A DNA stretch of 63,453 bases, the filler included, from Rhabdomonas costata (Eukaryota), in assembly GCA_019059605.1 (NCBI GenBank). It is 29 parts of 29 records of this genome, joined end to end, with 100 filler letters (N's around TTAATTAATTAA, not from the genome) between each part and the next. Parts side by side here need not be neighbours in the genome. Positions count along the whole stretch, not along the records: positions 4,386 to 6,477 come from JAHMHO010005717.1; 28 more parts are not named here. One strand, 5' to 3'. The notes under the pieces were generated by a model. It saw nothing but the letters and a program-made list of their open reading frames with translations, was not told the DNA's origin and did not search any database. Shown here in pieces: positions 2,194 to 59,194 of this stretch. Each line of letters opens with the position of its first letter. Position 1 is the stretch's first letter. Made by a program: the position numbers and the translations under genes.

Positions 2194-2315
2194 TGTGGTT
2201 GGTGCCGGTGGCACCCCGCACGTATTGCTTCACTTACAGGAGGCTGCTATTTTGACTGTCAACCGGTCCTACACAAAGGGAAGGGAAGGGCGCAACCGCT
2301 TCTGTCGATGTGCAG

Positions 2316-3909
2316 GGTACGCCTGTCCCAACGGGAGCTCTGCGATGACTCCGTGCAAGCCCGGCACCTACTCGCCGGTCGCAATGCTTCCCGCCTGCCT
2401 TGCCTGCCCCGCAGGGAAGTACTGTGAGTATCAGACCGTAGTCCCGACCGATTGTATGTGCTGCCTTTGCTTTCGGCCCTTGTTCAGGTTCTTTTGTCTC
2501 TCGTGATTGATTTATCCTCAACGATAGCGATTCGCGTGACGGGCGGATGTCGGTCGATGTCCTTAGTGCTGTCCTTGTCCAAGACCCATGTCATTGTTTG
2601 TTATCGGAAAAAAGAATGATCAACACGCCGGAATCATGCCAAATGAAAAGAGTATGGAAAGACATTGCGTCTCATGGTTATATATCTTTAGGGGAAAGTT
2701 ATCATCGCGCAAATGTGGAATATCAGCCTGGTAAACTATCAAGATGGAATGCAGCCTGCTGCTACTCGTGCCGCTTGTGCGCTTCAACAGTCGACCTTCC
2801 CTTTGGTGAAAATACTTCCGACAACCGCTAACAAAAGGCCATCCACTTGGCCTGTCTGTCCGTTCCCTCCTTCCCTAAATATACCGTCGATGGTGTGACC
2901 TAAGGGAAGGGGAGCAGAGAGAAAATAACGTGGAAAACATGGGCCAGGGATGCATCAAGACTGCACATCTCCAGAGGTAAGGAAGATTGAAAACACCCAA
3001 CCCTCTGGGCATCTTATTTGTGGCACTCGAACCTGCAGGCCCCTTGGGAAGGTACTGCCCCCAGGGCTCAGGGCTGGAGCACGGGCGCGCATGCCCCACG
3101 GGGAGCTTCAACAGCCGCACCGGAGCGGCGAATATCACCGACTGTCAGCTCTGCTTGCCGGGCAGGTGGACCTGCATGTCTGTGTGGGGCGTTTGGTCCC
3201 AACTTCAAGTGACATGCAGACGACCAACTGTCGAACGAAAGCTCTTCCTATGTGCTGAGTGTGAATTACTGGGCTATTCAGCATGTTGTGTGCCATAAGT
3301 AGTTGCGGTTGGCGTCGTGGGTAGCTTGTGCATCGCTCCCTGTGATGAGGTTTTCCGCATGCCGGGTGCATCCGTATACACCATCCCATTCACGCAAACC
3401 AAATTGTCGTGGAGGGAAGGGGATTTCCGATTCCCGCTTCCTTTTTATTCCCGCTTCTGCTTTTGCGTCGGCACTATTCTCTCCTTCTGTCAGGTTCTGC
3501 CCAAGCGCTGGCATGAACGCCTCTGGGAATGGGTCCTGTTTGCCAGGTACGCGTGCTGTTGATTCCTCAAATGCGCTTCTTCCGGGCTCTGACGATGAAG
3601 CTTGGAAAGCATTGCTCTTATTTGCCATTTATTGCCGAAGCAGCACTTTCTTTCGCATGAAAATGCAGTGTGTGTGAAGACTGTCGATACTCTTGCAAGC
3701 TTTCTGCCCATACTCCGAGAATATCTCTTGTGAAGCCCGTAGAACGACAGGCTTGCTTCGCAGTCAAGCTTCACCGCTTGCTGTGCAGGGTACTACTGCA
3801 CCAGCGGCGCGGCGGATGCGTATGGCACCCCCGGGGTGCTGGGTGGCGAGGGTGGCCCTTGCCCAGCGGGGTCGTACTGCCCTGCTGGGACCCCGTCAGC
3901 CTTGCCTTG
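2316..3909 (+). CDS. GCC2/GCC3 (ephrin-receptor-like) Cys-rich repeat protein, internal exons
   Basis: Exons 2316-2453, 3039-3165, 3494-3546, 3789-3909 join in phase; repeated CP.G.YC / CP.G.(Y/F)...C..C..G motifs. Confidence 0.85.
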
Positions 3910-4689
3910 GTTTGTGCTGTGTGCTTACTTCCGTCATGTGCACAGGCGAACCTGCAGAGGTTTAGTTCGGCACTGGGCGCCCGCCTCCATTGGCACGCTG
4001 CGCACGTCTTGTGACGTGTCTTTTCGGTCTTTGCTCAGATGGAAGCTTCTGCCTCTGCACATTCGTAGCGTCCTCACTCGTACTGGTGGGTCGGGCGGGT
4101 GGGTCGTTGGCGAGGGCGAATGAGTTTGCAGCACATTTCCCTTTCCGAGCTCACGGTGCACTGGAATGCCCATTCACTGCGCATTTTCAAAATTGAAATG
4201 AGGGAAAATGAACCAAAAAAAATAAATAAAACAACAGCCCCCCGGGCACGTACAATCCACCACACCCCCCCCAAACACACCAACANNNNNNNNNNNNNNN
4301 NNNNNNNNNNNNNNNNNNNNNNNNNNNNNTTAATTAATTAANNNNNNNNNNNNNNNNNNNNNNNNNNNNNNNNNNNNNNNNNNNNGGACGGGGCTTCGAT
4401 TGAAGCGCTGGCCACCTCACCCGCCTGCGCCTGCGCCGGAGGTGGAATGAGGATTTTTTGATAGGGTGCAAACTGGCAATTCCCCGCTGGGAGCACCATC
4501 TGTGAGTCTCTTGTGTGCGTTGAGGCGCTGGGCCGGGAATCGGGAAAATTGCTCGCTCGAGATTCTCTTAAATTACGGGCAGGGAGAAGGGGGAGAACGG
4601 AGGGCTGCACAAAAACTTAATCCCATTTTTGAATCCGCTTTGTTAACCACATTTTTATTGTGGAGGCCAAAACGGCTATCGTCGCATTG

Positions 4690-6441
4690 GAGAGATGGTG
4701 GAGGAGGCACCAGTTCCATGGCTTCAGGAGGAGCCGCTATGGTCGGGTCAGCCTCGGAGGTCTCCGCCGGGGTGCGGGCGGCGATTTTGGAGGCCCTTTT
4801 CTGCGCTGCCCTCTGCGCCGCCCTCTCCTTGCGCTCCACGAGTCTCTGCTCGTGTCTCCGCACAAGGTAGGCACACTGCAGGTCGTGCAGCTCGTTGAGG
4901 CGGTCCACGTCGAAGAATTGCCACACCGGGCTACCCCCCCCCCCCGTAGCCACCCACCTAAACCCTCTGAGTTGGGTGTAAATGATAAACGCTGGTACGG
5001 ATACTGTCAGGCACCGAAGTTAGCTCGAATCCACATCACGGTCTAACACGCTGGTCTCGATTAGGCGTAGGGGTGAAGGTCTGACCTCATTGCGTCCGAA
5101 GGAAGAGTCTGATTCCGGTATAGCCTGCCTTTGGATTCTTCCCTTCCGCCTGGCTGGAAAAAAGGCCAGCAGTCCGAGGAACCAGTCTCCAGGCTGCTGC
5201 CTCTGACACACATACACACAGAGGGTGCAAATGCCCAAATGAGAAATTGTTCACGCTACTTGGATGCTGCCACCAAAGTGCAAATCCCCCATCAATATGC
5301 TATCAAAGCCAATTGTAGTGAAGGTTTCGACATTGGATGCTCAATCAGCGAACCCCCGGGCTTGATTCATATGAGCAAAAGTCAAAAGGGGCATTGCCCA
5401 AAATCATGTAAGAGAGTTCAGGGGAATAGGAGGTGGATCAGGGGCATACTATGTTTTCCGCTTCGGCAGTTTGGGCCCCTTTGGAGGCTTCTCCTGCTCC
5501 ACCGCTGTCATCTCCCGCATCGCCGCGTTAATATCATAGCTAAAAGCACAGTGCACAAAGGCAATGCCCCTCACAGTGATCATCATTCCCCATCATCCCC
5601 ACCTCGACGGCTAGGGGCAAGATGGTCTTCGCATTTGCATGGGCAAAGCTTGCCTCGCTGCGTCCATGCTGCAAAACCTAACTAAAAGTCCACCAACAGG
5701 CTCCCAGGACCGTTGAGGCGCCAAGAACAAGATTCCGCAAAATCTTAACAGGCCTCGTGCTGCTTCCGATCTCCGTCAATGTGGGTAAGACCACGCAGTG
5801 CCACCACGAAATATTGTGTGAGAAGCCCCAGAAGAAGAAAGGGAGGAAACGGACCACACGGCACGCGAAAAAAGGGATATGGACCCCAAAGGGCACACTT
5901 CACGACGCAGGCGCGCTTCCCTCGCACGGCGAACGCCTTGGAAATGTCCTCGGCGTCGATGATATTCACCTGTGAAAGATACGGGAGAGCTTGAACTATA
6001 TGAGGAAAACTGAGAGAGAGAGAACAGAAGCAGAGCGCTATTTCGCAACCCAAACCAGAAGCCACAAGCCATAAGAACTTTGCCAGCGAAGGACACCACT
6101 TGCCCTGCACATTCACGCGAAATCATTTAGATACATACCCACACTCGACGACACGTTAAGTGATTTTGACAAAACTATCCAACCAAGGCCGAAACAGCAT
6201 GAGCACGTTCAAAACCAACTCCTTAAAAAGAGCTTGGGGCAGACCGCCACAGCAGTAGCAGCAGCTACACGACGACCAAACACAAGCTCACTCACTCACG
6301 TGCCTTGTTCCCGAAGAGGACCTCGACGTTGGTGCACGACCCGATGCGCTTGCTCTCGCTCAGAGCGGCGTGTGCCCGCACCGCACTTGGAAGCGAGCCC
6401 ATTGTGACGGCCGCGGCGTCCCGCTCGGGACTAATCACCAC
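4690..6441 (-). CDS. ISWI-type HAND domain protein fragment preceded by an RRM-like exon
   Basis: Exons 6441-6304, 5969-5899, 5539-5450, 4930-~4690 give RGKRACVVNYDINAAMREM..KPPKGPKLPKRKTYPVWQFFDVDRLNELHDLQCAYL, resembling the ISWI HAND pattern KR.RK.NY...P+.P...dfQFF...RL.EL. Lower boundary approximate. Confidence 0.7.
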
Positions 6442-6795
6442 CTGCGTTTACGTGGTATGCAGCCACCAACACACAAANNNNNNNNNNNNNNNNNNNNNNN
6501 NNNNNNNNNNNNNNNNNNNNNTTAATTAATTAANNNNNNNNNNNNNNNNNNNNNNNNNNNNNNNNNNNNNNNNNNNNGGTTGTGGGGAGGCCAGAGCGAA
6601 AAGCCCCGGAACAGAATCTTCAGTTTCCCCAATTTTTACAAAATCCAGAAGAACGGCAGTGAAGAGCGAACCCGTGAACCCGACTCTGCTGCCGGCAACA
6701 AGGTCCCTATTTCTGCTAGCAACCCAAATCCAAGGGAAAGGGAAAGAAGACGGAAGGGGTGGGGAAAACTGGAAAGCACAGAAAAAATGCAAAGG

Positions 6796-6926
6796 AAAGA
6801 GAAGGAGAAGAGAAGAGAAGAGAAGAGAAGAGAAGAGAAGACAAGAGAAGAGAAGAAAAGAGAAGCGAAGCGAAGAGAGGAGAGAAATTAGAAGAGAGGA
6901 GAAGAGAGGAGAAGAGAAGACAAGAG
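6796..6926. repeat. Degenerate (GAAGA)n pentanucleotide microsatellite
   Basis: Directly visible; lies just after a predicted donor on the minus strand. Confidence 0.95.
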
Positions 6927-6956
6927 GTGAGTGACGCAGCGTCCTTTCCCACGTGC

Positions 6957-8669
6957 CTGGCTCCAGACTTGCCTGTGGTAAGCGTCGGGCAGGCTGGGGA
7001 GCAGGTACAGTAGAACCGTCCGGGCCATGGCGCCGCTGGCACTTCCCCAGCAGGCAAAGAGGTCTCCCACCCGCTCTGCTGTGGGCATCCACCGCCGCAG
7101 CAGAGCGTCGGCAAGGAGCCCCCGCCACGTGAAACCTGCGCATTCAAACACGTCATCCTGGAGATCTCATTCAATAGCACCAAGCGTTACCAGTGACGGC
7201 AGGTGTACGGTTTGCGTGTGGCACACCGGGAAGATTTCGGGCGATTTGTACTCAGACCGTGGCGCTTACTTCCGAAGCGATCATGCGCACACCAGAAAAT
7301 ACCAGACTAACCAAGGTCCAACTGCTATACACCGTCGAAGTGGAGCTGCTACAAACCCTGTGCCGGTTCCGAAACGCATAAATAAGGCTTCGCCCCCTGC
7401 CTCACCCAAAACCGATTATTTGATTCTCTGGAAACATTTCCGAATTTTAGACTTTTGCGAAAAATTCACAATGGATCGGGTACTAAGCCTATAAGACCAC
7501 TCCAAAATACGAACTCTCAGGCCGGGAGGGGTGGGGGACACACTCACACAGCGGCAAAAAGCAGGAGCAGCAACCTTGCACCATGAGCCCCTCCTGCCGG
7601 ACCTGAGCGAGGTACACCCGCTGCAGGCTGAGCATCGGCCCATCCACGGTCTCCCCCAACGAAACCTCGCCCTCTCCACACCCCAAGAACGCGGCAGAAA
7701 GCCACCCCAGCTTCACTGCCCCACCCAGGGCACACAGCACCGGCGGAGGCTGCGCTATGAACCCTTCTGGCTCGGCCCCGACGGCGCATGGGATGCTGCC
7801 GGAGCGGGCCTCTTCCCATGGCAGCATCCATGGCAGCCACTGTGACAGAAGAAGCTCGCGGGACTCCCGAGAGAGTGCGGGGGGGCCCATCGGGGCACGG
7901 GTAACGTTGTGCAGCACTGGGGAGAACATCCACAGCGGGTCCACCCGCTCAGCAGGGGCACAAGAGAGGCTGTACAGCGTGCAAAGGTCCTGTGAGGGTG
8001 GGCGAAAAGCAGAAGGGAGCTGAGAGAGGAGAGGGGACGAGGAGAAAGACCATGGTCTGGGAAGAAAGAAAGAAGTAAATTGAGAGACAGGCTTTCTTTT
8101 TCTTAGACGGATTTCACATCACCCAAGAAGAAGCAGAAACAGCAAAGCTTCGTACCAGGGTACCAAAGGATGCCGCACGGAGTGTTGGGCAAGCCAAGCG
8201 GAAAAAGCAAGCCACAAAAAGAAGCAATAGGCTAAGAGGAAGAAGAAGATCAGATATGGTGATGGGCGATGGGATTCTTTCCTCTCGTCGTTACAGGTCT
8301 GGCAAACCCCGAACTCTTCTTCCGTCACCTTCCCAAAGCACAGACCCTTGATGGTTGAGCATGAGAAAAACTGAAAAACGTGTTGCAGAGCGGATTCCAG
8401 TGCCCTCCGCGAAACTGCTACTAAAGAAATCAAAGGGATGAGCAAGCATGCGAGCCTTGCTTGAGAGAGCAAGACGAGCTACCTTGGTGCAGGTGCTGGA
8501 GGACGGAAGTAGACTTTGACTGAACCACGGCCGAAGCACGGAGTCCGCGCTGACCGCCCGGGACAGAACCAGCTGCAGGACCTGGGCGTGGTCCCTGGGG
8601 CATAGGTACGTGGTCAGACTTAGCCCCAGGCCAGCATTCGCTCCCCCCCAGCAGCCCACCCCAACCCCC
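6957..8669 (-). CDS. Helical protein fragment, possibly RPAP1/MINIYO-like C-terminal region
   Basis: In-phase exons 8669-8483, 7989-7575, 7135-6957 (CAG|gcacgt). DPLWMFSPV and FACWGSASGAMARTVLLYLLP..YHRQVWSQ loosely recall RPAP1 C-terminal motifs. Confidence 0.4.
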
Positions 8670-8769: not shown

Positions 8770-9713
8770 CTGGTTCAGTTTTTGCAGTGGCAGTCACTCC
8801 TGATGGATCACACATAGTAAGCGGAAGCCTGGACAAAACCGTTAAAGTGTGGAAATTGCTCACAGGCAAAGAAGAACGAACAATGACTGGACACAGTGGT
8901 ACAGTGTGTGCCGTTTCTGTAACGCCGGATAGCGCGTATATTGTGAGTGGAAGTGCTGACAGCACCATTAAGGTCTGGAACTTGCAGACAGGGTTGGAAC
9001 GTTTGAATCTCCAAGGACACAGCGAAGGCATCTGGGCGGTTACGGTTACCTCTGGTGGGAATCGGGTAGTGAGCGGTAGTGGCGACAAAACAATAAAAGT
9101 GTGGGATCTGCAAAATGGAAGGGAGGAGGCAACACTTGTTGGCCACTCTGACATTGTTTTTGCTGTATCCGTGACACCAGATGGGAAATCTCTAGTCAGC
9201 GGAAGCGGGGACAAAACTGTCAAGGTGTGGGATCTCGGGACAGGCAAGGAAGTGCGAAGCATGTGCGGTCACAGCAATGCTGTTTATGACGTGGAACTGA
9301 CTCCGGATGGAAGATTCGTTGTGAGTGCGAGTTCAGACAACACCATTAAAGTTTGGGAGATGCAGACAGGAAAAGTGGTGGAAACTCTCAGTGGCCATGT
9401 CGGCACTGCCTTATCCGTCGCGGTGACCCCAGACGGGAGAAGCATTATAAGCGGAAGCGCCGACAGTTTGGTCAAGGTTTGGGCCCTAAAGGAGCAAGAC
9501 TTCATTGTCCACAATGAGCTCGTGGGTTCCCCAACGCCCATCCCTGAAGTGGCGTTCTCTGTCAGCGAAGGCGGTGAAAACACTTCGATGACATCTCATG
9601 TCCCCTGTGTCCTTATTCTTGGTTACAATTCCCCGGTCATCGAAAATGTCCTGCTAACTGACGAGGCTCGCGCACCGTCTTTGCTTCGGCGCAAACCAAA
9701 TCCCTCATCGTAG
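8770..9713 (+). CDS. WD40 repeat protein, 5'-truncated
   Basis: Six regular 42-aa units V.VTPDG..IVSGS.D.T(I/V)KVW.L.TG....l.GH in one uninterrupted frame; the non-repeat tail may be partly intronic. Confidence 0.95.
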
Positions 9714-12744: not shown

Positions 12745-14179
12745 AACACCGAGTCGGGAAATTTCTGTTGGTTACTGGGCAGAATTGCATTGAACTGACT
12801 TTGAACAACAAGTTACACGTTGTTTCCCACGTGGCAATGATTATTTTGAGCTTTTGAGAGCCACATCGAACTTTGCGGTTTTTGCGACTCTGCACTGGGG
12901 ACTGAGTTGCTGCGATATGGCACAGCACAAGACTAAAGCTTCCTTGGGCTTTCTAGCGAAGGTCAAAATAATCATTGCCACGTGGGAAACAACGTGTAAC
13001 TTGTTGTTCAAAGTCAGTTCAATGCAATTCTGCCCAGTAACCAACACAACAAANNNNNNNNNNNNNNNNNNNNNNNNNNNNNNNNNNNNNNNNNNNNTTA
13101 ATTAATTAANNNNNNNNNNNNNNNNNNNNNNNNNNNNNNNNNNNNNNNNNNNNACACACACACACCACCCGCAAACGCAGCACCCGCACCCGCAGACACA
13201 GCTGGTGTTTTACCGCTTACCTCTTGACCTATACACAGATCACAATACAATTTGTCATTTGTGTTCCGGAACCCTCTACCTCCCCACCTTGTAAAAAGGA
13301 AAAATGATATCGACAAAATCGACGTGGGGCTAAATTTTTGGGTTGAAATGTGTGCTTATTTGCTCCTGAATGGACACTGGCACCCCGTTTGTGCGGGCAT
13401 GCCCTGTGATAGGTTTTCAATGATGGATTAAAAAAAATTTTGTAATTGACTTGAAATGCATTCTTTTTGCAAATGATACAAATCACAAATCGCATCTTTT
13501 TTAGGCAGGCAGGTTGCTATTTCACCCCCCTTCCCCTGGTTTTCGAAGAGGATTGGCAATCTGCGCATGTATCCACTTAAATGATCTTCCTATTCCCGTC
13601 AGTGCTGCTGGCGATGTTCCTGTTTGTTTGTATTATCGTCCCACCCCGCTGCCTGGCTGCTGTTTCCGGATGCCCCTGTGAGATTGGTGACACTGTAAAA
13701 TCAGAACTCAATGCTTTTCCCGAGGAGCGTTCCCAGGAACAAGGAATTTCGGCGCACGTTTACCCTGTGTCCCCTAGATCTACGGTCTTCTTTTTTTCAA
13801 AAGAATTGTTCGTTTATTTCTCGTATGTGGTGTTCCTCTTGTGGCTTGTGTACTCAGCGTCTCGACGGTAAATGGGGTGACATCAAGAATACTGTTGGGG
13901 GTCGTCGTGGCGTTCTCGTGCACAAGCAGAAGAAGTAGAAGAAGAGACAGATAAACTTATTTGCATACTGGGGCGCCACAGCATAAACTTGTTTGCATTC
14001 TGGGGGGCCACTTTATATTTTGATCTATGGGGGGGGGGCCACAGGATAAACGCATGCCACGAAACACACTAAAATCTAAGTTTCTTCCTTTTCTCCATCC
14101 CAATCACGGAGGTCGCTAAGGTCGTTCTGAAAGTGGATGTGGACTTTTGCTGTGCGTGTCGGTGGGTGGGTGTGTTCAG

Positions 14180-28898: not shown

Positions 28899-30394
28899 CT
28901 ACAGGACAAGTACGGCGTGGACGAGCGCTTTCGCGTGGTGCGGCTCCTGGACTACTTCATGCACTACGACCACCTGTGTCTGGTTTTTGAGCTGCTGCAT
29001 GTCAACCTTTATGAGCTGCTCCGGTCCAATGGCTACAAGGGCCTCAGCCTGACTGTGATCCGGGTGTTCCTGCGTCAGCTGCTGAACGCTATGAGCCTTC
29101 TGGAGGAGTGCCACATCATCCACTGCGATTTGAAGCCGGAGAACATCCTCCTTTGCGAGTACGCACGCTTTTTTTGTTGGAATAGGAATAGAATGAAAAT
29201 GAGCTCTGCGGCGCCAGTTCTCTGCATTCCCGTGCCTTAGTCTTTGGGCTTGCTTTTGCAGAAGTGCTTACCCCTCTCTCAACATTTGTATGGCTAAGTC
29301 TGCCCACAGAACGAATACAAGATTAGATACCCCAACACCAGCCCACAAAAAGAACAGACAGACAGACAGCGTTTGCGAAACTGAGGCACGCGGTCTTAGG
29401 TGGGCCTGGAAGCACGTGCTCATTATGCAACTGCCGCAGAAGCCTTCCTGGCTGGTGTTCATTCATGTGGCTTTTTGTTTGCAGTCAAAACACAGCAGCC
29501 ATCAAGCTGATCGACTTCGGTTCTGCCTGCCTGGAGAGTCAGACCGTGTACACTTACATCCAGTCGCGGTACTATCGGTCCCCGGAAGTACTTTGTGGAT
29601 ATCCGTATGCCACTGTGAGCTGGCTTTAGCTTTCCTTCCCTTCCACTCGTGAAGGAGAACCAAAGCAAGACAAGACTGGTCAAAGCAGATCGCAATAGTG
29701 CCCATGCCCATTTCATCTAAAAAATCATAATTTAAAAAAGCTACCGGCTGCTCTCAGTTTAATTGGTACTATGTTTCGTGTGAGAGGAGGGGGGCCCTTT
29801 TTTGTGTTGTGCCCTCGTTGACCTTTGCTGACTCACAGTGAACTCGTCGTCCTCTGAAAATCGAACCACCATTGATGAGCTTCGCAACGCATTTTCTAAA
29901 ATTGTTTTATTTTTTGAAGGTCTTTTGAGTCATTTTTTTTCGCTCGCTTCTCAAGCAATTTATTTTATTTATTTAGCTCTCTTCATTGTACGCGCCCCCT
30001 CCTTTGTTGCAGCTGGTCCCTTCACCCTAACCTCAATCCCCCTTCAACACTGCATTACCTATAATCGTTTTTCTTTGTGAAAAGTTTATGAAAAGTTGCC
30101 CTGGTATCGTGACCACAGGAGAATGAGAAGATGAAAATGCCTGGAGCACGAGATGCTGTGCGCGGCTGGAGCTGCGCCATGCCGGGCTGTGTATATCAAC
30201 ACAAACCAGCGCGTACAGGGTTGTATTCGATGACAATGAATATTTTATTTTTTACGGCCTGGTGGACACAGATACAACTCCAAGATTGACATGTGGTCAC
30301 TGGGGTGCATTCTGGCGGAGCTGTTTCTGGGGCTTCCTCTGTTTCCCGGTGGCAGTGACTACAACCAAGTGGCCCGAATCGTGGAGATGTGCGG
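28899..30394 (+). CDS. YAK1: YAK1/DYRK-family dual-specificity kinase, catalytic exons
   Basis: Exons 28899-29158, 29485-29604, 30272-30394: [67 protein letters not shown]. Confidence 0.93.
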
Positions 30395-43419: not shown

Positions 43420-43892
43420 GTGCAGGTGGGATGAGAATCGTAGCCCCCCACCCCCCGCAGCGTCCTTACTTAGTAGTGAATTCTGGTCAGGTATACCTTC
43501 ACTTTTGGTTTCCTCGAAATCACAAGGAAACCTGGGGTGCGTAAAATGCGTCGTAAACTGGGAGTACCACGCCAAATGCTAACCTTACACTGGGAGCTCT
43601 GAGGGTTCGTAAGAAGCCAGAGGCAGGACCGCTTCACTAGAAATCAGCTCTGAAGGCAGTTGTTGCGAACACATGAATCCGAAACATAAAAACAGGAATA
43701 CACTATGTCGCAGAACACCGCTAAGCTTANNNNNNNNNNNNNNNNNNNNNNNNNNNNNNNNNNNNNNNNNNNNTTAATTAATTAANNNNNNNNNNNNNNN
43801 NNNNNNNNNNNNNNNNNNNNNNNNNNNNNGACGGTGGGTGCCGAAGTGAGAAATGCGTTTGCTTCGGGTAGTGTTGGTGACCTGGTGCGCGT

Positions 43893-45808
43893 GTGTTGAT
43901 TCACAGCAGTCCAATTTCTATTATTATCAACTTTTATTATTATTATTATCAACCTTTCACTTTTCAATTGTCTTCCTTTCGTCACCTATATTCACAATTC
44001 ATGGGATCTTTTGGTGCCTCGTCTCCGTTTGTTGTGTTGTCCACTGGGTTGCTTCTGATACTTCTGGAGCCAGCCTACTCTGCGTCTCCAGTGGGCCTTA
44101 GCGATGCACTCAACGTCTTCTTTTCCATCGCGGACTGCCGCGGCACCCCTGTAACCGACAGCAAAATTTTGAATGCGACGCAGCCTGCTGTGTGGCTGCG
44201 CTGTGCAATGCGTTCGGGCCCGTACCCATCGGTAGCCGTGGTGATGCCCACCCCAGCCTTTCGGGTCACCCCTATGCGAGTGGAAAACGTGAAGCAGAAC
44301 ATCCTGGAACCTCTCCATGCTGACCTTTTCTCCCATTTCTTGTATGTGAGCGAGGAGCCACCGCTGGTAACCCTGTCTCAAGTGTCGAGCATCGCTACCG
44401 GGTTGCTCATTGAAAAACAGCCCACCATCCGTGATATCCAGGACTTGATCCAGACCCGCCCACCACCGCACGCTGCTCGGCAGTATTCTCGGATGTTGGG
44501 AAACACGATGAGCCCCGTTTACGGAAAGATCAAAAAATGGGGCACCCTTTTTGCTTACCGCACAATGTCTCTCCTGTATAGATTGCTCGAAGTGTATGAG
44601 AATTCGCAGCGGCAGGGGAGAAGATACACCCATGTCATATACTCCCGGATGGATCTGCGATGGTTGCTGCCCCATCCATCACTGAGCATTCTGGACCCCA
44701 GCGGGTGTGGGTGCACTTTTATGACGACTTTGGGGGTCTCAACGAGCGGCATATAATCATGAACCGCACTGTAGCCCGAGTGGTGCTGTCACGGTGGGAC
44801 GCGATCTTGGATGGCTCCGCGCTGACCTCTTTGTGCCTGAAGACCCAAAACTCGGAATTCTTCTTCATGGTCTGGATGCTGCAGCATAAGATTCCGATCG
44901 GCCGCCACCCCGGTTTTGCATTTGTAGAATGCTGCCCACCGGAGGAGACGACGTGCGGGCACTCTGTGTGTTGGAGGGTCGCAGCCTTTTTATCCTGCGC
45001 TTAAACTGTGACGGAGCGGCGTTGAGGAGCCGCTCTTTTCCATCCTCCGCACTAACTGAGGAGAGTATTATCATAGGCCTCGAAAATTCCCCCAAAATTG
45101 ACTTCCAAAAGTTAATTATAAGGGTTAGTCCTCGGTTTTGGAACACCTCACAAGTGAGCTACAGGTTGTCGAATGCGCCTCCTGGCACCACAGTGTCTCC
45201 ATTGCCGCTTTAAGGGTAGAGGACTGCTAACACAATTGGTGATTTGGTCTCGCAGTCCTTGCGAGACCAAATCAGAGATAGTAATGGGGTGCGGTTGATC
45301 ACGCACCGATTAAGGTAGTGCAACCTTACTTTACACTGCATTGGGTTCTTTCACTGGGCTGTGGATGTCTGAAGGGAGGTGCTGGGTCAACTCCCCACCC
45401 CCACCACAGCAACCTTTTTTCGAACGTTCTTGGACCTTCCTATACAGCTTTGAGCGCAGGTGTGGTACAGGTTCCAAGGGATCGTCGAACACAACCATGG
45501 TAAAATATGTTGGTCATGGCCAGGCTGCTCTTGAGCAAACATCGGCTCTTCTAAACCACCCACTGCGGAACAGCACTGCTGTTTGGACCTTGTGCCGTGG
45601 GGATCCATCGTTAGTGGTGCTCTGCAACCAGACTCTGCCCTTCCACCGTAACGGGCGGGGTAAGATGAAGCTGGATCCGTTTCACCACAAGAACTTTCTG
45701 TGCCCGCCTCAGTGGCGCCCTGAGTTTCGGGCGTGGTCGAACCATCCTTTAGCGATTGAAGGCTTGGGCGAGTGTGACTGCAAGTTCAGGGTCCTCTCGC
45801 AGGACTGA
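43893..45808 (+). CDS. Membrane-anchored putative glycosyltransferase-like protein with one frameshift near 44699
   Basis: Hydrophobic N-terminal segment; YTHVIYSRMDLRWLLPHP..LDP / QRVWVHFYDDFGGLNERH across the shift; probable intron 44968-45459; start codon uncertain. Confidence 0.6.
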
Positions 45809-56961: not shown

Positions 56962-59004
56962 CTTGTACCTGTGGTGCTTGTGGTGGTTGTGGAGTTTTCG
57001 GAGTCCATGACGGAGATCATCGCCATGTGCTCCTCGGCAGGAGAGGTGGTGCCGCTTAATTCGCCAGTTCTCATTAAACCTGAAGTCGACATGTGGCTGG
57101 GTGATTTAGATGTTCAAATGCGCGCCACTCTCAAGGACATGCTTGTTCAGTGCCTTGCCAACTGGGACATTCAGAAGCATCCCGCTCAGGTTCTCTGCTT
57201 GAGGGAGATGGAATGGTTCACCGCGGAGACCGAGAAGAACATCAAAGCAGGGTCGCTTCCAACGTTCAAGACGCTCTTGCAGCAAAAGCTTGCCGAGTTC
57301 ACTCAGATCGAGTCTGCTGTGAGCAAAGTTATGGAGCTAAAGACCAAAGCCTTGATTCTGGATCTCATTCACAACATTGAGGTCGTTTCTTCGCTTATCG
57401 ATGCGCATTGCAAGGGGGCTGATGAGTGGCCGTGGCAAAAGCAGTTGAGGTACTACATGAATTCCGAAAAGTCCTGCCTGCTGCGCATGGTGGACGCCGA
57501 GTTCCAATACACTTACGAGTACCAAGGCAACGCGCCCAGACTTGTGCACACTCCACTCACGGATAAATGCTACCTGACCCTGACTCAGGGGATGCACTTG
57601 GGATACGGTGGCAATCCCTATGGCCCGGCTGGGACTGGAAAAACGGAGTCCGTCAAGGCACTCGGGAATGCGATGGGCCGGCAAGTTTTGGTACGCCTCT
57701 TTGATTTTCTGGAGAAAGAATCGTTACCAAATCCTTCTTGTGCACCCATGCGCACAAAGACTTAATGTTCATATGTCAGGGTGGGCTGCGGTATTGTGTT
57801 TGCCAGTCGAGTACAACGAACATTATGTTGACGCCGTCATCACTTTTGTGAGTCCTTTGACAGGTATTTTGTTTTTGTTTTTTCAGGTGTTCAACTGCGA
57901 CGAAGGAATTGATTTCAAGTCCATGGGACGTATTTTCATGGGGTTGTGCAAGTGCGGTGCCTGGGGCTGCTTTGACGAGTTCAACCGGCTGAAAGAGGAT
58001 CAGCTGGTATTCAGCCCGCATTTCCCTTGTCTTTTCTGAGTTCAGCTTCTTTTGCCAGTTTGGCTGATTTTTCTTAGTATTGTCATTGGTCTGCACTAAT
58101 CCGTTGCTGCCTCCCACCCGCTCACCCACGCCTCCTGATGGACCTCTGGGGCGTGCCGGTTTAAGCAAGGCTTAGGAATGTAAAGAATACCAAAGGCTTT
58201 CTGGGTTGGGAGCAGTGCTTTTTTCAACTGTGGTGGCCCAAAAACCTCATCGCAACGGCCGCCGGGAGCGGTATATTTTGATATAGATGTTTCTTCACGG
58301 CGGGTGCACGATGGGGAAGAATCGAAGAAATAGGGCTCTTCTGGTGTTTTGAAGCAATTGCCGACGATCACCCATTCAGACTGCTTGTTCTATTCTTTCT
58401 TTTCTGTTTATTTTCGTTCATTTTGTGCTCTCCACAGAGTGCCATTTCCGACATGATTCAAGTCATCCAAGCAGCGCTCAAGGCCCGCGAGAGTCAAGTC
58501 TTCCTTTTGGGCCGAAACGTCGACCTGAATCCAAGCGCTGGAATCTTCGTCACTCTGAACCCCGCAGGAAAGAACTATGGAGGGCGATCGAAACTGCCCG
58601 AGAACCTCAAGCTTTTGTTCCGAGCTGTTGCTATGACTGTTCCGGACACTGGTCTGATCTGCGAAGTTGAGCTGTACAGCGAAGGCTTTGTCGAAGCCAA
58701 GCCTTTGGGGAAGAAGCTTGTCGAGGCCTTCAACCTTTGCCGCGATCTGCTATCCCAGCAGCAGCACTACGACTGGGGTTTGCGTGCGCTGAAGATGATC
58801 CTGAAGACCGCTGGTTCCATGAAACGCGCTGAGCGAAGGATTGCCATGAGCCCGCCAACGTCTCCAGACAAAGCTCCTCCGCCACTGTCTGACAAGGACA
58901 CGTTCAAGGCGGAGTGCGAGATTGTGATGAAAGCCTCTCGTGTCAATACGCTCTCCAAGCTCACGTTCGAAGACGCAGTGCGGTTCAATGAGATTATGGC
59001 GGAC
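56962..59004 (+). CDS. DYNC2H1: Cytoplasmic dynein-2 (IFT) heavy chain, linker-AAA1 region
   Basis: Exons ~56990-57690, 57887-58006, 58438-59004: [84 protein letters not shown]. Confidence 0.93.
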
Positions 59005-59194
59005 GTGAGCTTGGAGAGCGTATTGACACGAGAGGCTTTCACCACAACCCNNNNNNNNNNNNNNNNNNNNNNNNNNNNNNNNNNNNNNNNNNNNTTAATT
59101 AATTAANNNNNNNNNNNNNNNNNNNNNNNNNNNNNNNNNNNNNNNNNNNNGCCCTTGCACAAGAGACAGGGGATACGTGAGAAATGGTTGTGTA

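Follow-up and report, generated by a model that had tools for sequence, protein, structure and literature searches.

We describe a contig that, in a model set by reading frame, intron borders and codon periodicity, contains part of a protein-coding gene. Three introns lie complete within it, a GC-AG intron followed by two GT-AG ones, all of ordinary spliceosomal type; the ends of the third are predicted to zip together into a long helix, which may aid its splicing, and we judge this combined reading to be evenly balanced. Intron 3 is confirmed as a real end-pairing outlier among the three introns, and its rare feature is that both arms of the helix lie exactly at the two splice sites. The initial annotation had proposed that the ends of all three introns pair. 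Every string that it quoted is present where it was placed, and the proposal holds for intron 3 (-42.5 kcal/mol, 32 bp) but not for introns 1 and 2, where complementarity is at chance level; since pairing in these two introns does not exceed that of non-cognate or shuffled ends, the claim for all three introns is refuted. As it stands, the case consists of a single predicted helix in a putative gene model, and the attractive three-intron pattern is absent.

The analysis draws on 61 kb of sequence and published work. The window, by which we mean the whole stretch of 63,453 nucleotides, consists of 29 parts of about 2.09 kb each, ordered by slightly descending length; a linker scan over positions 1-63453 locates N44-TTAATTAATTAA-N44 linkers every ~2.19 kb. 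Because the parts are merely joined by these linkers, neighboring "genes" in the window are not linked to one another. The gene fragment considered here lies on the minus strand of a single ~2.09-kb part (4386-6477), which holds all three introns and whose flanking parts are unrelated to it. The neighboring contig carries a long TC-rich, microsatellite-like tract built of TCTCT and TCTTC units (6780-6960, minus strand).

The gene model comprises four putative exons on the minus strand: exon 1 (6304-6441), exon 2 (5899-5969, 71 nt), exon 3 (5450-5539, 90 nt) and exon 4 (4690-4930), the last with an undefined 3' end and an open frame that continues to 4576. Each segment is open in its frame, and once spliced (6441-6304, 5969-5899, 5539-5450, and 4930 to about 4690) the four give one open frame, interrupted by introns with GC-AG, GT-AG and GT-AG borders, respectively, as found in U2-type introns. 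A CAG at 6444-6442 precedes exon 1, whose upstream intron is cut by the contig end. Third-position GC is 0.82 in exon 1 (against a second-position GC of 0.53, both computed on 6438-6304), 0.87 in exon 2, 0.69 in exon 3 and 0.75 in exon 4; values in this range (0.69-0.87) far exceed second-position GC and favor the view that the segments are exons coding in the frames given. For comparison, dynein exons elsewhere in the window have a third-position GC of 0.66-0.72, and introns have an overall GC of 0.48-0.53. The assembly of four segments into one open frame with coding-like third positions speaks against the possibility that the model is wrong or the locus a pseudogene, in which case the true junctions would differ (for example, with a donor at the GTGAGT at 6299) and the ends that we compare would be false ones. 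So does intron 3, for which no other GT-AG pair keeps a stop-free frame. What lends this possibility some weight is that intron 1 needs a GC donor despite a consensus GT donor 4 nt away, together with the absence of any Pfam or PDB match and of an exon 4 homologue in the searches described next; taken together, we consider it improbable.

The HAND-domain label given to this gene rests on what we take to be a resemblance to an ISWI motif. A Pfam search with the four exon peptides at E values up to 1 returned nothing relevant (the sole row was UvsW-1, E 0.13), and a PDB phmmer search with exon 4 and with its first 36 residues gave no ISWI at E values up to 10. Neither a word-indexed search limited to longer proteins nor a full HMMER search of 1.84 billion representatives brought up a homologue of exon 4, and the ESM Atlas gave no relevant match for the gene. 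Thus no match to the HAND family or to ISWI emerged from these single-exon queries, which, being limited to single exons, make a weak test of that homology. An Rfam search of the whole window yielded 0 hits. Elsewhere in the window, an ORF of 291 aa whose N-terminal region includes a hydrophobic stretch (43881-44756, plus strand) belongs to no Pfam family, and no homologue of similar length was found for it.

Intron 1 (5970-6303, minus strand, 334 nt) is GC-AG in the frame-keeping reading, has a strong pyrimidine tract (20 pyrimidines in the 30 nt before the acceptor) and contains a perfect 7-bp stem between GAGCTTG (6289-6283) and CAAGCTC (5993-5987). It begins with GC at 6303; the GTGAGT lying 4 nt inside, at 6299, was tried as its donor and breaks the frame. 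Intron 2 (5540-5898, minus strand, 359 nt) is GT-AG, with 17 of 30 pyrimidines before its acceptor, and its quoted 9-bp stem, which includes three G-U pairs, joins GTGCCCTTT (5896-5888; +3 to +11) to GAGGGGCAT (5572-5564; -33 to -25). The strings of this stem are present as described, but the 3' arm lies 25-33 nt upstream of the acceptor rather than at it, and the minimum-energy fold of the intron does not include the stem.

When the first 40 nt of an intron are paired with its last 40, the ends of introns 1 and 2 give duplex energies of -18.1 and -19.0 kcal/mol. These energies were reached in 11.7% (p 0.12) and 22.9% (p 0.23), respectively, of 1,000 dinucleotide shuffles; they are equaled or exceeded in stability by 31% and 27% of window segments of the same length (25-nt step, both strands) and by 18/72 and 14/72 of non-cognate intron-end pairs. 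A perfect 7-bp stem like that of intron 1 occurs in background pairs at a frequency of 84/5110 (W=25) to 286/5110 (W=40), so that this stem is marginal and, allowing for its post-hoc choice, not above chance. The end complementarity of both introns is thus no more than would be expected of two arbitrary 40-nt pieces of this genome. With normal pyrimidine tracts, they would need no special mechanism for their removal.

Intron 3 (4931-5449, minus strand, 519 nt, GT-AG) is the only in-frame canonical solution for its interval. CAG at 4967 and TAG at 4958 were considered as alternative acceptors; each produces an in-frame stop with the sole available donor. The nested strings at its ends are TGCCCC/GGGGTA, CCACC/GGTGG and TGAACTCTC/GAGGGTTTA, and in the minimum-energy fold of the whole intron a C/U-rich 5' arm (5411-5446; +4 to +39) pairs with a G-rich 3' arm (4932-4968; -38 to -2) in a predicted helix of 32 bp (23 Watson-Crick and 9 G-U pairs) that begins 3 nt inside the donor and stops 1 nt inside the acceptor. 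When each intron is folded with 10-nt exon flanks added, about 25 bp of this helix are expected in the ensemble, compared with 2.8 and 2.0 end-to-end pairs for introns 1 and 2. The composition of the two ends is strongly skewed: the first 40 nt hold C17 U13 A6 G4 (30/40 pyrimidines) and the last 40 nt G24 U8 A5 C3, ending in a run of twelve G's directly before the TAG acceptor (4934-4945). The initial annotation was right to place this run where a polypyrimidine tract would be expected, as only 8 of the 30 nt before the acceptor are pyrimidines, against 17-23 of 30 in the other eight introns that we analyzed. A pyrimidine-rich stretch does occur at about -60 to -37, upstream of three AG dinucleotides that the 3' arm holds ahead of the AG used. 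A canonical G-quadruplex motif (four tracts of G3+ separated by N1-7; 4934-4965 by regex scan), one of 12 such motifs in the window, overlaps the 3' arm, and judging from this motif the arm could form a G-quadruplex instead of the helix.

To place these values in context we used nine introns, namely the three described here and six others set by protein homology or motif continuity. Two of the controls (57691-57886 and 58007-58437) come from a partial heavy-chain gene of cytoplasmic dynein-2 (IFT) at 56962-59050 (plus strand), for which a search gave 212 hits, the best at 66% identity to an unnamed protein and the named ones at 46-57% in nematodes, a chytrid, a trypanosome and oomycetes. Two more (29159-29484 and 29605-30271) interrupt a protein-kinase fragment at 28899-30394 (plus strand), recognized by its catalytic-loop and DFG motifs and presumably DYRK-like, and the remaining two (2424-3038 and 3166-3493) belong to a cysteine-rich-repeat gene at 2243-3546 (plus strand) that matches Ephrin_rec_like weakly (E 0.005). 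Left out were two incomplete kinase introns and, for its mismatched phases, a third intron in the cysteine-rich gene (from 3547). All six controls, which make up a very small sample and lie on other contigs, are GT-AG introns with T-rich tracts, and 0/6 are nonconventional. Unlike the intron-dense genes on other contigs, an ORF of 313 aa with six WD40 repeats (8772-9710, plus strand) is uninterrupted and intronless.

Against this background, the end pairing of intron 3 stands apart by position. Its first-40/last-40 duplex has an energy of -42.5 kcal/mol in the sense orientation versus -31.6 kcal/mol in antisense, a value that 0/3,656 same-length window segments (25-nt step, both strands) and 0/72 non-cognate intron-end pairs attain. 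At a finer 4-nt step, 4/22,840 segments do so, including intron 3 itself, leaving 3/22,839 others, two of which share one locus. The 5' end of the intron pairs best with its 3' end, beating all 88 internal windows, and in the reverse comparison a partner for the 3' end equal to the 5' end turns up in only 1/88 of them. Intron 3 scores -12.0 kcal/mol in the 10+10-nt chimera test of PMC11170887, whereas six of the other eight introns fall between 0 and -6.0 kcal/mol. The kinase intron at 29605-30271 also opens with GTATGCC and has a 6-bp terminal pairing in this test (-6.0 kcal/mol). Elsewhere in the window, the ends of the 519-nt segments at about 27714-27196 and 8165-7647 (both minus strand) pair as strongly as those of intron 3, at -50.9 and -42.9 kcal/mol.

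The energy itself is less distinctive than the placement. In 1,000 dinucleotide shuffles of the ends of intron 3 the mean is -37.95 kcal/mol and 13.6% reach -42.5 kcal/mol (p 0.14), so that the cognate pair prevails over non-cognate ends but not clearly over shuffled ones; with shuffled ends averaging about -38 kcal/mol, the helix energy is mostly compositional and sequence order adds little. These figures are what one would expect if the helix were accidental, with a G run and a C-rich tract falling by chance at the two ends of an intron whose splice sites are used regardless. The sequence around it offers ample raw material for such an accident: the 61 kb contain 24 G/C homopolymer runs of at least 7 nt (eight of them of at least 10 nt) and 168 G-rich clusters of 40 nt. 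For many of these clusters a partner at -35 kcal/mol or lower exists within 1.5 kb, and where the position of the partner is left free G-rich windows often reach -35 to -48 kcal/mol over that distance. Strong duplexes with a free partner position are, in short, cheap in this genome. Moreover, when excised introns are folded alone the ends of controls pair too (17 bp in D1, 16 bp in K1), so that this measure does not discriminate. Set against an accidental helix are the rarity of having both arms exactly at the splice sites (the 3/22,839 segments above) and the lack in intron 3 of the pyrimidine tract that the other eight introns have, which means that something else would have to mark its acceptor. 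We regard an incidental helix as somewhat unlikely in itself, though almost as likely as a functional one.

Across the nine introns, a weaker pyrimidine tract tends to go with stronger end pairing, a trend anticipated by the initial annotation that is suggestive and falls short of significance (Spearman 0.60, p 0.089, n=9; 0.42, p 0.30 without intron 3).

We also considered whether intron 3 could derive from a transposon. A blastn comparison of the contig with the window, whose 61 kb are a small sample for this purpose, returned only the self-match and hence no other copy, and the two arms align poorly as DNA inverted repeats, with just the 23 Watson-Crick pairs of the 32 matching. A separate 91-nt inverted repeat (12763-12853 and 12959-13049; 98% complementary, 105-nt spacer) lies right at a contig end; possible sources are a foldback element and a chimera formed during assembly or amplification.

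If the helix of intron 3 does function in splicing, a model-dependent claim that we would place between one chance in three and an even chance, its role could be pictured as follows. The C/U-rich 5' end and the G-rich 3' end, including the run of twelve G's, would zip into the ~32-bp helix, which would set donor and acceptor side by side and bury the three AGs that lie between the pyrimidine-rich stretch and the AG used. In yeast introns, structure can mask competing acceptor AGs. The helix would in this way compensate for the missing pyrimidine tract and render a poor acceptor usable, as in the bridged introns of zebrafish and yeast. A functional helix faces the difficulty that it overlaps donor positions +4 to +6, which have to be read by U1. 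Low-complexity tracts like those of the two arms abound in this genome, and the helix probably arises from these rather than from a dedicated sequence code. The initial annotation had raised structure-assisted splice-site definition for all of the introns, and we find it plausible for intron 3 only, with its long helix and 8/30 pyrimidines, and not for introns 1 and 2. A bolder version would make intron 3 a structure-defined spliceosomal intron in a protist, in which the ~32-bp helix replaces both the pyrimidine tract and U2AF-type recognition of the acceptor, and which is one of a genome-wide class arising from G/C-rich tracts, the class being either a separately evolved form of the principle known from zebrafish or a step on the way to hairpin-dependent nonconventional splicing; we think this distinctly improbable. 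Were the helix required, intron 3 would also offer a candidate model for the origin of hairpin-dependent introns.

The closest point of comparison is with the introns of euglenids and diplonemids. As described in the relevant parts of PMC12501133, nonconventional euglenid introns require the motif N3-CDG...CH'G-N5-6 followed by an exon that starts with a purine; in PMC4770533, the hallmark of the class is a terminal hairpin by which the junctions are brought side by side. The terminal hairpin of intron 3 would juxtapose its junctions in the same manner. This likeness is the main ground for suspecting that intron 3 is a hybrid or intermediate intron of euglenid type, removable by the nonconventional, hairpin-dependent machinery in an organism that has it, and introns bearing both motifs are indeed on record, at 0.8% of Euglena agilis introns in the figures given by Nomura et al. 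2025 (PMC12501133). The differences are nevertheless several: introns 1-3 all have canonical GT-AG or GC-AG borders; none of the three has a frame-keeping border pair within ±15 nt that fits the nonconventional motif; and the downstream exon starts with a pyrimidine for introns 2 and 3 (a C in the case of intron 3) rather than with a purine. Compared with hybrid introns in particular, the CAG/CTG-type motif at +4 to +6 and -8 to -6 is absent, and the helix of intron 3 has a register of +4:-2 instead of +4:-6. The genomic setting differs as well from that of Euglena gracilis, whose tracts are reported to be C-rich and most of whose introns nonconventional (PMC11170887); the six controls here are GT-AG with T-rich tracts, a contrast that leaves other euglenids eligible, and one published euglenid draft is described as having mostly conventional introns (PMC8219788, in its account of introns). 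We therefore consider a hybrid intron very improbable, and return to intron 3 as a GT-AG spliceosomal intron with a predicted end-joining helix.

Introns of that description have been established in euglenids as "intermediate" introns (Milanowski et al. 2016, PMC4770533), and among the three introns here it is intron 3 alone that resembles them in combining GT-AG borders with a stable predicted end-joining structure. The initial annotation had suggested a possible bridge between the two intron classes; that idea is already in print in the form of intermediate and hybrid introns (PMC4770533, PMC12501133, in the sections that define them), and 0/3 of the present introns carry the nonconventional motif. 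Milanowski et al., in their treatment of such structures (PMC4770533), regard structure in conventional introns as probably no sign of a relationship to nonconventional ones, and in the genome-wide test of terminal pairing reported for E. gracilis (PMC11170887, as far as that test is presented) GT-AG introns as a class do not pair.

Outside the euglenids, the nearest likeness is to the (AC)m-(GT)n introns of teleosts, which, in the zebrafish cases set out by Lin et al. 2016 (PMC4691745, in its main description), are bridged by structure and splice without U2AF2. Complementary low-complexity tracts at opposite ends, a bridging helix, GT-AG borders and a poor pyrimidine tract are common to these introns (PMC4691745) and to intron 3. 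The tracts of intron 3 are, however, C/U-rich and G-rich, with AC/GT repeats absent from its ends, and we are concerned with a single predicted case in a protist-like genome rather than a vertebrate one. Yeast introns offer a second parallel, in that stems between donor and branchpoint or between branchpoint and acceptor aid site pairing (works cited in PMC4691745, as summarized there); as in yeast, intramolecular pairing in intron 3 would shorten effective distances and could hide competing AGs, whereas here the donor and acceptor ends pair with each other directly. Because structure-bridged GT-AG introns have already been described in euglenids, yeast and fish, intron 3 offers little that is new in kind; if its helix is required, it would carry structure-bridged GT-AG splicing without a pyrimidine tract beyond vertebrates and yeast into a distant lineage of unicellular organisms.
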